Assembly (NCBI GenBank): GCA_963843145.1
Contig: CAWJJC010000005.1
Span: 32,001-96,000, forward strand
Reading direction: 5' to 3'
Length of the DNA stretch: 64,000 bases
Source: an uncultured delta proteobacterium
GTDB taxonomy: Bacteria > Desulfobacterota > RBG-13-43-22
The notes beneath the pieces are model-generated. The model did not search any database and was not told the DNA's origin. It saw only the letters and a program-made list of their open reading frames with translations. This document shows, in pieces, positions 58,552 through 59,857 of the stretch (position 1 is its first letter; each line of letters starts with the position of its first letter). The translations under genes were made by a program, and so were the position numbers.

Positions 58552-59857
58552 AGTCCCGTCAATCTCGAGCGATCGTTCCGGAACATCCTCGCCATAACGC
58601 TGCTTTCGGCTTGGAAAAATTATAATCGCTGAAAATAGCGTTAGCGTGTCAGGCAGCCGAAGTGCGTTCTCCTACCTGCTGCTGCCGGCCGTGCAATCAC
58701 CTATCAAACAAGCGACGGGCCTGCCGAGCAAGTCGTCCCTGTAGCAGCAAGACCGGCCGTGCAATCATTTTGCGCGCAATCACCTTGCGTGCAATCTCGA
58801 CTTGCCGTAGGACCTGCAACGCAATCCCGAGTTACGTCCGAACCCGCACTGCAATCAAGGAATGTGCCTGTTGGAGCGCCACCACAAGTGCAACGTCCTC
58901 CGCCGCCCGTCCCCGTCCCGGTTCCCGTCCCCGTCCCGGTTCCCGTCCCCGTCCCGGTTCCCGTCCCCGTCCCCGTTCCCGTCCCCGTCCCGGTTCCCGT
59001 CCCCGTTCCCGTCCCCGTCCCGGTTCCCGTCCCCGTCCCGGTTGCAGTCCCGGTTCCCGTCGCCGTTCCCGTTCCAGTCCCCGTTCCCGTTACTCCACTT
59101 CCAGCTTGACACGCTCCGCTCCCTCTGGCCGTCTCACCCAGGAAGACCACGGTCGGAGATTCGTACTTGTTCTCACTTTTCTTTTCCATAACTTACCTCC
59201 ATGGATGCTGGTTTGGATTGTATCGTGGATTTCTTGCTTGGGTCAGGATTCCGCACTCGTTTACCACTTCGGTGGCAATTATTGCCCGTTATTTTTCCTG
59301 CGTTTCCGTACTTTTGGTATCCATTGGGTGTCAGATAACCACTCACTTTCTATAAAGTGAACCAGAACAAAAAAATTGTCAAGTTGTTTTTGGCGTCCAC
59401 CGCAATTCCCCATTTTCCCTTTGAGCGCCTTAAGTTGCCTTAAGAGGTCCCCTTCCAGTCCACCCTCGAGAATCTTAGGAACGAGTGATCGGTATATTGT
59501 TTTTCACTAAGCGTCTGCAAGACGAAATCCTGTTCGAGGGATGTGGCCTGGGTTGGATTGCCTGTATCATATCTGATCTCCTGAACAACGTAAATCTGCC
59601 GGTAAAGATGACGGTTCATTTCGTTCAAAATACGGGATTTTTCAGCGTTTGCCGTTTGAAAATAAATTGCCCCCAAATTGTAGATCAGATATTGGCTTGG
59701 GGTTTCAGTGATCAAGAGAATCTCATGAGCAGCCTGCCGCTGATTGAGAAAATCCACGATCATCTTGTGAGCCCGATACCACTCCATGCTTTTTGGAAAA
59801 AGGTTTTCTTGTCCCAGGGGCTCATAATAGATAAAGGTTAGAATGGTAAATAGTAAC
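58552..59857. repeat. source copy of the direct repeat (precursor gene plus 3' end of the upstream gene)
   Basis: Block-wise identity with 49904-51021. Confidence 0.92.
58704..59189 (-). CDS. scmA: RiPP precursor copy 1 (ScmA-like): leader + CQAG + (Thr-Gly)31 + CxxG repeats
   Basis: GGAGG RBS; KYESPTV leader motif; 9 Cys and 7 CxxG motifs; first gene ahead of the PqqD and rSAM genes. Confidence 0.8.

Follow-up and report, generated by a model that had tools for sequence, protein, structure and literature searches.

Introduction

The SynChlorMet cassette, recognized by the NCBIfam models TIGR04248-TIGR04252, and the gene clusters for linear polyphosphorylated peptides (LPPs) are the closest described counterparts of the locus analyzed here. 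This locus lies in a 64,000-nt stretch of DNA (the window) from an uncultured delta proteobacterium (Desulfobacterota; RBG-13-43-22), which corresponds to positions 32,001 to 96,000 of contig CAWJJC010000005.1 in GenBank assembly GCA_963843145.1. Of main interest is a gene (copy B, 58704-59189) that appears to encode the precursor of a ribosomally synthesized, post-translationally modified peptide (RiPP). Between a conserved N-terminal region and a Cys-rich core, the precursor carries a tract of 31 dipeptides, nearly all of them Thr-Gly. By its sequence, this tract is a lineage-specific, in-frame ACNGGN coding minisatellite with rapid turnover.

LPP clusters, described in 2026 (PMC13381572), occur in Bacillota and are embedded in polysaccharide loci. 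Their precursors, encoded by between one and three open reading frames (ORFs) of 35-200 aa, share a YxxPxV... leader and have variable C-termini. A peptidase cleaves the leader, the RiPP recognition element (RRE) is needed for this cleavage in vitro, and RRE binding depends on the YxxP motif. The LPP kinase places several phosphates on a single Ser and does not accept Thr there (PMC13381572). The cassette in the window resembles these clusters in its archaeal-type signal peptidase I, discrete RRE, HprK-like kinase, nucleoside triphosphate (NTP) transferase and MsbA-like exporter, in its setting within a glycan locus, in the number and length of its precursor ORFs, and in a conserved YxxPx[V/L] N-terminus followed by a variable C-terminus. 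Every member of the LPP core gene set has a counterpart, with the signal peptidase I at 43 bits (cut-off 51.85) and the PF14907 NTP transferase likened to LppN by description. However, the window cassette adds two radical S-adenosylmethionine (rSAM)/SPASM enzymes and a Cys-repeat core, fuses peptidase and kinase, and belongs to another phylum, and its leader has the YxxPxV part only (YESPTV), without the VLxHQxIxFETxxS remainder. The words 'radical', 'rSAM' and 'repeat' do not occur in the main text of PMC13381572.

For the SynChlorMet cassette, we found no descriptive paper among those listed by literature searches, and the comparison is with its family models. ScmE, ScmF and ScmC of the window score above their cut-offs and ScmD stays 2 bits short (97.8 vs 100 bits). 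Alike are the short precursor gene directly upstream and the combination of a YExP-type leader with C-x-x-G repeats, as in the ORF L059 described below. In contrast, the window precursor has no match to the ScmA model TIGR04252, its ScmC homologue comes as a fusion with a signal-peptidase-I domain, and the dipeptide tract is absent from all ScmA-like proteins examined. Thioether-forming rSAM RiPPs (the ranthipeptide substrate of PapB, the sactipeptide StsA) likewise combine rSAM/SPASM enzymes and an RRE with repeated Cys core motifs, but ScmE reaches 93.7 bits against a PapB cut-off of 340 and 118.4 bits against a StsB cut-off of 625.

Two known repeats are related to the tract in design. [quoted passage not shown] By analogy, the tract shares the ACN GGN cassettes, the silent third-position variation and the change of length by cassette gain or loss. 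It differs in that per is eukaryotic, of unrelated descent and encodes a large regulatory protein, with common alleles of 14-23 pairs vs 31 in copy B and ~54 in a second copy of the gene, copy A. In the microcin B17 precursor McbA, a Gly10 linker connects the leader to the first heterocycle, and natural variants without up to six glycines, or without all of them, are still processed (accessible part of PMC6722960). Here the likeness lies in a low-complexity spacer between leader and modified site that varies in length and is partly dispensable; the McbA linker differs in having 10 residues of one amino acid, in serving an azole-forming RiPP class, and in a length dependence tested by experiment. 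Low-complexity precursor spacers and Thr-Gly minisatellites are already known, and what the window holds is a new variant of them in an uncharacterised RiPP precursor.

Results

An intact precursor gene with a coding minisatellite

The tract occupies residues 34-95 of the copy B product. Its 62 residues (29 Thr-Gly and 2 Thr-Ala pairs, 186 nt) agree exactly with the initial annotation, which was made from the sequence alone. The 62 codons are 31 ACN, 29 GGN and 2 GCN, and all differences lie at third positions save the two Ala codons, in line with the earlier remark that variation is almost confined to these positions. The antisense frame, CCN-GTN (Pro-Val), fits equally well, with its variable bases likewise all at third positions, so that this pattern does not give the coding strand; homology of the flanks does. 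Most of the tract is made of 18-nt cassettes (ACG GGG / ACG GGA / ACC GGG), for which Tandem Repeats Finder gives a period of 18, 10.3 copies and 89% matches. The pattern (ACNGGN)5 has 53 matches in the 5.35-Mb genome of the organism, each within the copy B tract or that of copy A, 8.5 kb away, and the reversed control pattern has 0. The tract is therefore far beyond chance.

By its sequence and context, copy B would be a genuine ScmA-like precursor of a SynChlorMet-type cassette. It shows the general features of a RiPP precursor: the ORF is short, shares its strand with the adjacent genes for an RRE and modifying enzymes, and combines a conserved leader with a hypervariable core. The first description as a RiPP precursor is borne out by the PqqD/RRE gene and the two rSAM/SPASM genes that follow directly downstream, and by the conservation of the leader. 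The proposed link between a YxxP leader and the RRE also holds, as the YxxPx[L/V] element is present and has been shown to be bound by lasso and LPP RREs (PMC13381572). After the tract come GGGR and the Cys-rich core (CTCGG..., four DC-x-x-G units and a final TCSAG). The units include DCTQG, DCAQN and the last, TCSAGPSLV; the 12 residues between GGGR and the first DC unit had been left out of the initial annotation. The picture of a core split by the tract is arguable. The conserved CxxGSxV motif before the tract may be part of the recognition region, in which case the tract would be a spacer between leader and core.

A promoter-like site (59246-59217, minus strand) was found by the promoter and terminator scan as a consensus match only, and Rfam gave no match within 49500-59800. 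The AlphaFold2 (AF2) model of the single precursor sequence has a mean predicted local distance difference test score (pLDDT) of 39.5, with no strands and no confident fold. A predicted complex of ScmD with the leader scored 0.02, which is evidence neither way.

The tract in independent sequence data

Of 24 sequencing runs listed in a run index, 20 contain some of the stretch, with shares of at most 0.34, and contigs of four of these runs were compared with the window. All of these contigs are less than 99% alike to the window and so represent relatives, not the source organism itself. Three runs, each from a different study, have contigs that cross a flank/tract boundary with at least 31 letters on either side (X1 record 6, 59022-59145; X3 record 23, 59029-59400; X8 record 24, 58500-58938). 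Run contigs cover both boundaries at 90-99% identity, in the copy B region only; none spans the whole tract, and tract parts without contig cover carry no meaning. Because contigs of three independent runs cross the boundary, the tract is no artefact of this assembly. Related organisms have it as well and keep it in frame.

The relatives also give a view of variation. X8 record 24, from a metatranscriptomic library, has a 6-nt insertion in the tract, and the Gly after the tract is changed to Thr. The remaining indels of the run contigs, of 1 or 3 nt, are confined to non-coding flanks. Coding differences, mapped by hand, amount to five synonymous sites vs two changed codons, and the upstream non-coding flank is more variable, with 13 sites in ~210 nt. 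X1 record 7 joins 58873-58899 to 59038-59087, which would correspond to an in-frame allele 138 nt shorter, a hint only with 27 letters on one side. Transcription through the tract is hinted at by the X8 contig, which may stem from DNA carry-over.

A precursor family with a variable linker

Leader matches in two related genomes, followed by one contig scan, led to 13 homologous loci in metagenome-assembled genomes labelled Syntrophaceae, Thermodesulfobacteriota, Aminicenantes, Lentisphaerae, Thiotrichales and others. In each, a small ORF encodes the leader KYESPILVPLGEMAKGSGxCxxGSxV ahead of variable (D/A)C(T/S)AG-x5 units. The order precursor-ScmD-ScmE is kept in 13/13 loci from several phyla, with ScmD and ScmE 71-89% identical, and ScmF, ScmC and the ATP-binding cassette (ABC) gene come next wherever the contig reaches. 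In the alignment, leader residues K8, Y9, E10, P12, L17, G18, A21, G23, G25 and C27 are invariant and the cores vary. The leader is conserved in these 13 syntenic loci and in more than 100 database proteins. A precursor profile matched 173 proteins in a word-indexed database of 5.8 billion proteins and 463 cluster representatives; the best 120 and the best 150 of these, respectively, were considered, and 265 proteins were fetched. Among the best 120 of the 173 matches, every source name is 'hypothetical protein'.

A run of TG, TA or GT of at least 6 residues occurs in 0/13 loci and 0/265 fetched proteins, where the longest has 4 residues (2 pairs). This answers the question, raised at the outset, of whether homologues carry the tract: all those examined are without it. 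It also agrees with the earlier statement that no RiPP precursor with such an insert was known. Short-read assemblies break at tracts of this kind and would conceal further cases. From the leader Tyr to the end, copy B has 153 residues vs at most 140 (median 96) in the 117 YxxP-bearing proteins among the best 120 matches. The tract directly follows the conserved CxxGSxV, and at the same alignment position four relatives (P0084, P0077 with Gly10, P0057 and P0034) have Gly/Asp/Asn-rich low complexity. With these relatives, the family is seen to possess a variable, low-complexity linker at this position, of which the copy B peptide is the extreme case.

The curated ScmA model, TIGR04252 (49 positions, cut-off 35 bits), does not match the window precursor, whether whole, as leader or as core. 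Tract-free homologues score 7-15 bits (L042 7.2, L049 14.9), and in 0/301 genomes of the phylum does any protein exceed the cut-off. The best match in these 301 genomes is L059 (G202:C2, 1411-1665, minus strand) at 28.6 bits, which has a KPYEPPKI leader and C-x-x-G units and adjoins an ORF with a signal-peptidase-like motif and an rSAM-like ORF. Because the design is shared with L059 and yet the scores are absent or below the cut-off, the copy B gene would be an ScmA-like precursor missed by the curated model.

Further searches were directed at the tract and the core. The core alone (residues 96-161) as query returned 4 candidates, none significant, and an exact look-up in a collection of 15 billion proteins found neither copy. 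A degenerate pattern for the leader-tract junction had 0 matches in a metagenome scan; the looser GSxV(TG)5 had 34 loci in such a scan, none with a leader-bearing small precursor. Where its matches fell in stop-free frames of at least 30 aa (29 ORFs), the frames were unrelated and the runs had 5-11 pairs. P0123 (770 aa) and P0128 (1062 aa), both long, unrelated and rich in tandem Cys-containing repeats of 10-11 residues, match the core part of the precursor profile, and these look like low-complexity cross-matches.

Separately, locus L041 (6625-11944, in the same record as G016) has partial ScmE, ScmC and ABC matches over 277, 234 and 216 aligned residues, as if frameshifted. Two other repeat-bearing genes were seen outside the family. 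At 15403-15984 of the window (minus strand), a 45-nt tandem repeat gives a signal-peptide protein at least 4 copies of a Gly/Met/Tyr/Pro-rich unit of 15 residues (GYGGGYGMGPGMMGP), ahead of a helical C-terminal part. In a genome of the same family, L011 (G007:C88, 14878-15033) has a lipoprotein-like signal, a Gly/Ser/Thr-rich stretch and a (TG)12 directly before the stop codon, with codons mostly GGC/GGA.

A second copy and the turnover of the repeat

Copy A, overlooked in the initial annotation, lies in a duplicated segment, along with the 5' region of the precursor gene and a 3' fragment of the neighboring GT-C-like gene. The 3' end of this GT-C/PMT_2-like gene (652 aa) was duplicated with an internal deletion and now stands beside copy A (50664-51021 vs 59440-59857). 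Outside the tract the two copies are nearly the same, with 98/99 nt of the leader and 198/201 nt of the core identical and no stop codon in the copy A core. The tracts measure 325 vs 186 nt (~1.7-fold) and have no three-unit run in common; that of copy A (~54 pairs) is built from cassettes other than the 18-nt cassette of copy B. Single-nucleotide insertions at 50545, 50361, 50276 and 50269, all four at GGG-A-ACN junctions, and a missing GGN at 50397 leave the copy A core out of frame. Either copy A is a pseudogene of recent origin, or its insertions are consensus errors, in which case it would be a second intact precursor with ~54 pairs.

Substitutions fall at third positions in both tracts, with non-synonymous changes in 0/107 codons of copy A and 2/62 of copy B. 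Tract codon usage (ACG 71%, GGG+GGA 90%) stands apart from that of the window genes, which prefer ACC (55%) and use GGC and GGG equally (32% each). Runs of at least three G occur on the sense strand in 28/31 units of copy B and 49/54 of copy A vs 0.48 expected from local codon usage, an enrichment that is overstated because the repeat units are non-independent. The G-quadruplex (G4)-aware folding energy of copy B (-92.8) shows no difference from random synonymous (TG)n controls (mean -99.0, sd 9.1). The CGGGA motif is one base out of phase between ACG-GGA and ACC-GGG units. As in a minisatellite of the per type, copies differ in length (186 vs 325 nt) and an allele with 6 additional nucleotides is present in the X8 contig. 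The expansion of the tract is probably recent.

Next to the end of the duplication, ~900 nt (48995-49904) are without an ORF of at least 80 aa. A short ORF at 49705-49885 contains a helix-turn-helix-like stretch that, by eye only, is reminiscent of a transposase fragment.

The cassette and its neighborhood

Coordinates of the two copies and of the cassette genes are collected in Table 1. All six cassette genes are full length, and by the models they match the cassette appears to be of the SynChlorMet (Scm) type. In the fusion protein, the archaeal-type signal peptidase I domain lies at residues 20-98 (TIGR02228, 43 bits, under the cut-off of 51.85) and ScmC, a HprK/PEPCK-like P-loop domain, at residues 336-511 of 528; stand-alone ScmC of ~280 aa is common elsewhere. 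Modelled with AF2 from a 32-row alignment, the ScmC domain reaches a pLDDT of 85.7. Foldseek relates the model to PEPCK (E ~1e-6) and to the HPr kinases 1ko7 (E 3e-6) and 1knx (E 1e-5), and the alignment shows no variation at His, Lys and Asp-Asp. For ScmD, the best PDB match by sequence is weak (E 0.028) and falls on the lasso RRE TbiB1.

Table 1. Features of the two precursor copies and of the surrounding cassette (window positions)
Feature	Position	Strand	Evidence or remark
Precursor gene copy B, ScmA-like, intact, 161 aa (predicted)	58704..59189	-	Translation; aligned in leader and core with 13 syntenic precursors
Conserved N-terminal region, residues 1-33 (YxxPxVxxxG leader, then 11 residues)	59091..59189	-	Alignments
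(Thr-Gly)29 + (Thr-Ala)2 tract, ACNGGN coding minisatellite	58905..59090	-	Translation, repeat analysis
GGGR, Cys-rich core and stop codon	58704..58904	-	Translation, alignment
Shine-Dalgarno GGAGG, 6-nt spacer (AAGTTA...) before ATG	59196..59200	-	Read from sequence; kept in copy A
Precursor copy A, ORF as it stands: same leader, frame-shifted repeat product, no Cys core	50207..50680	-	
Copy A tract, 325 nt	50257..50581	-	107 ACN/GGN codons, four 1-nt insertions, one missing GGN
Copy A core, out of frame with its own leader	50056..50256	-	198/201 nt identical to copy B
Duplicated segment, matches 58552-59857 with internal deletion	49904..51021		Includes 3' fragment of GT-C-like gene
ScmD, PqqD-type RRE	58247..58486	-	TIGR04248 97.8 bits vs cut-off 100; PF05402 41.4 bits vs 23.4
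ScmE, radical SAM/SPASM	57063..58193	-	TIGR04250 550.1 bits vs cut-off 400
ScmF, radical SAM/SPASM	55903..57066	-	TIGR04251 522.7 bits vs cut-off 400
Signal-peptidase-I::ScmC fusion, 528 aa	54336..55922	-	TIGR02228 43 bits; TIGR04249 168.9 bits vs cut-off 125
MsbA-like ABC exporter, without peptidase domain	52476..54299	-	Best ABC model is MsbA
Uncharacterised nucleotidyltransferase (NTP_transf_5)	51184..52452	-	PF14907 193.5 bits

A glycan locus surrounds the cassette, with glycosyltransferases (GT9, GT4, GT2), deacetylases and Wzy_C, and the cassette adjoins a PMT_2-like membrane protein and a methyltransferase (MTase)-GT2 fusion. The coding fraction of the window is 0.87 and the neighboring genes are intact. 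The GT-C-like, MTase-GT2 and MTase genes stand beside 0/13 homologous loci (~6 kb of upstream flank in 5). Because the GT-C-like neighbor is without a PDB relative by sequence, a match in three same-genus genomes or a place at the 13 loci, we left it out of the system. An ScmE orthologue was not found in the three same-genus genomes (completeness 77-94%; best matches 27-32% identical), and identity of the cassette proteins to their counterparts in other phyla reaches 89%. Such a distribution would fit horizontal acquisition.

Discussion

Taken together, a tolerated flexible spacer is the most likely nature of the tract, and a new kind of chemistry is not likely. We think it probable that the tract is a lineage-specific, unstable in-frame repeat expansion in a variable linker and acts at most as a flexible spacer, since it sits where relatives have low complexity and since the Gly10 linker of McbA is a precedent; among the functions first suggested for the tract, a spacer or stalk is the best supported. 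By analogy with described RiPP systems, the N-terminal 33 residues (YxxPx[V/L]xxxG and GSGxCxxGSxV) would form the recognition region bound by ScmD, the two rSAM/SPASM enzymes would modify the repeated (D/A)C(T/S)AG units in the core at the C-terminus, the leader would be cut off by the signal-peptidase-I domain of the ScmC fusion, and the MsbA-like pump would export the product. The tract grew by cassette duplication and slippage between recognition region and core, in a segment that is hypervariable and of low complexity across the family, and may be tolerated as a disordered, flexible spacer if leader recognition and core modification are modular. Mispairing of phase-shifted CGGGA units could produce 1-nt shifts and so explain the broken copy A; alternatively, these are consensus errors.

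Several points weigh against this reading. Production and modification of the peptide are predicted, and the contig from the RNA library may be DNA-derived. The nearly exclusive third-position substitutions suggest selection on the Thr-Gly sequence itself, which a neutral spacer does not need, although amplification of a few cassettes gives the same pattern. Retention of G3 runs (28/31 and 49/54 units vs 0.48) is unexplained by a spacer. At 62 residues, the tract far exceeds the linkers of the family (153 residues from Tyr to end vs 140 in the longest relative), and the homologues considered are the best 120 of 173 and the best 150 of 463 matches.

The tract might instead be a degenerative expansion that disables or burdens the precursor in a decaying cassette, with copy A a pseudogene and copy B perhaps non-productive. 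The four 1-nt insertions that part the copy A leader from its core, the mobile-element-like helix-turn-helix fragment and ~900 nt of ORF-free DNA beside the duplication, and the failure to find the cassette in the three same-genus genomes searched (77-94% complete) point this way. Yet six cassette genes are full length, copy B stays in frame across its 186-nt repeat, the flank/tract junctions persist in relatives from three runs with a 6-nt change as the sole tract indel seen, and the copy A core is free of stop codons and differs at only 3 of 201 nt, which makes decay unlikely. An assembly or consensus artefact was the outcome that, according to the initial annotation, could overturn the claim. 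Low-complexity repeats are error-prone, the exact protein is missing from the 15-billion-protein collection, and the 1-nt insertions of copy A resemble homopolymer errors. With the tract in both copies on one contig, contigs of independent runs crossing both boundaries at 90-99% identity, intact neighboring genes and a window coding fraction of 0.87, however, the tract's existence as an artefact is largely refuted and such an origin exceedingly improbable. A role at the level of nucleic acid, as a G-run-rich, G-quadruplex-prone and hypermutable contingency locus that alters peptide length or core frame, would draw on a sense strand of 54% G with 28 runs of three or more G and loops of mostly 2-4 nt, on the G3 runs in 28/31 and 49/54 units vs 0.48 expected, and on the frame shifts of copy A, all four of which fall at GGG-A-ACN junctions. 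But the units are non-independent, so that the enrichment is overstated; the G4-aware folding energy shows no difference from synonymous controls, changes in the number of hexamer units preserve the frame, and the 1-nt insertions could be consensus errors. We regard this role as very improbable indeed.

Other alternatives concern the peptide. Glycine can adopt D-like backbone angles, and this general principle is the sole support for a beta-helix in which alternating L-Thr and Gly would form a gramicidin- or polytheonamide-like pore or fibre. Thr is polar, the tract differs ~1.7-fold in length between the copies, no homologue has the tract, and the AF2 model of the single sequence (pLDDT 39.5) has no strands, which is weak evidence; moreover, the per Thr-Gly region is read as flexible turns (PMC4109182). 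The beta-helix, one of the three functions first suggested, is barely credible on these grounds. The remaining suggestion was a poly-acceptor, with the 31 Thr hydroxyls phosphorylated, nucleotidylated or glycosylated by ScmC, the NTP transferase and/or the GT-C-like and GT2 proteins to give a mucin-like stalk. The case for it is circumstantial: a HprK-like protein and an NTP transferase do belong to the cassette. ScmC has the HprK/PEPCK-like fold with invariant His, Lys and Asp-Asp, and lasso-tailoring kinases are reported to have a His-Lys-Asp-Asp motif in common (PMC9266682). Ser residues of lasso and LPP precursors are targets of HprK-like kinases and an NTP transferase; the cassette sits within a glycan locus, next to the PMT_2-like protein and the MTase-GT2 fusion; and the LPP authors consider that surrounding polysaccharide genes could add modifications (PMC13381572). 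But ScmC and the NTP transferase also occur in tract-free cassettes, so their native target should lie elsewhere than in the tract. In addition, LppK puts several phosphates on one Ser and leaves the S3T variant unphosphorylated (PMC13381572), the GT-C-like, MTase-GT2 and MTase genes are beside 0/13 homologous loci, and the copy A tract is ~1.7 times longer and broken. A poly-acceptor is therefore quite unlikely; its full form, a stalk decorated after leader-guided recruitment as part of a mucin-like, rSAM-crosslinked peptide whose length the minisatellite retunes, is very unlikely.

The tract is a clear bacterial case of a coding hexanucleotide minisatellite in a RiPP precursor, built like that of Drosophila per. 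It would mark a site in the precursor family that tolerates very long insertions and may be useful for engineering the length of the leader-core linker. In the SynChlorMet cassette, two rSAM/SPASM enzymes appear to join the LPP accessory set (signal peptidase I, RRE, HprK-like kinase, NTP transferase and MsbA-like pump). More than the tract itself, the lead for the bench is the large precursor family (173 proteins, 463 representatives) that escapes the ScmA model.

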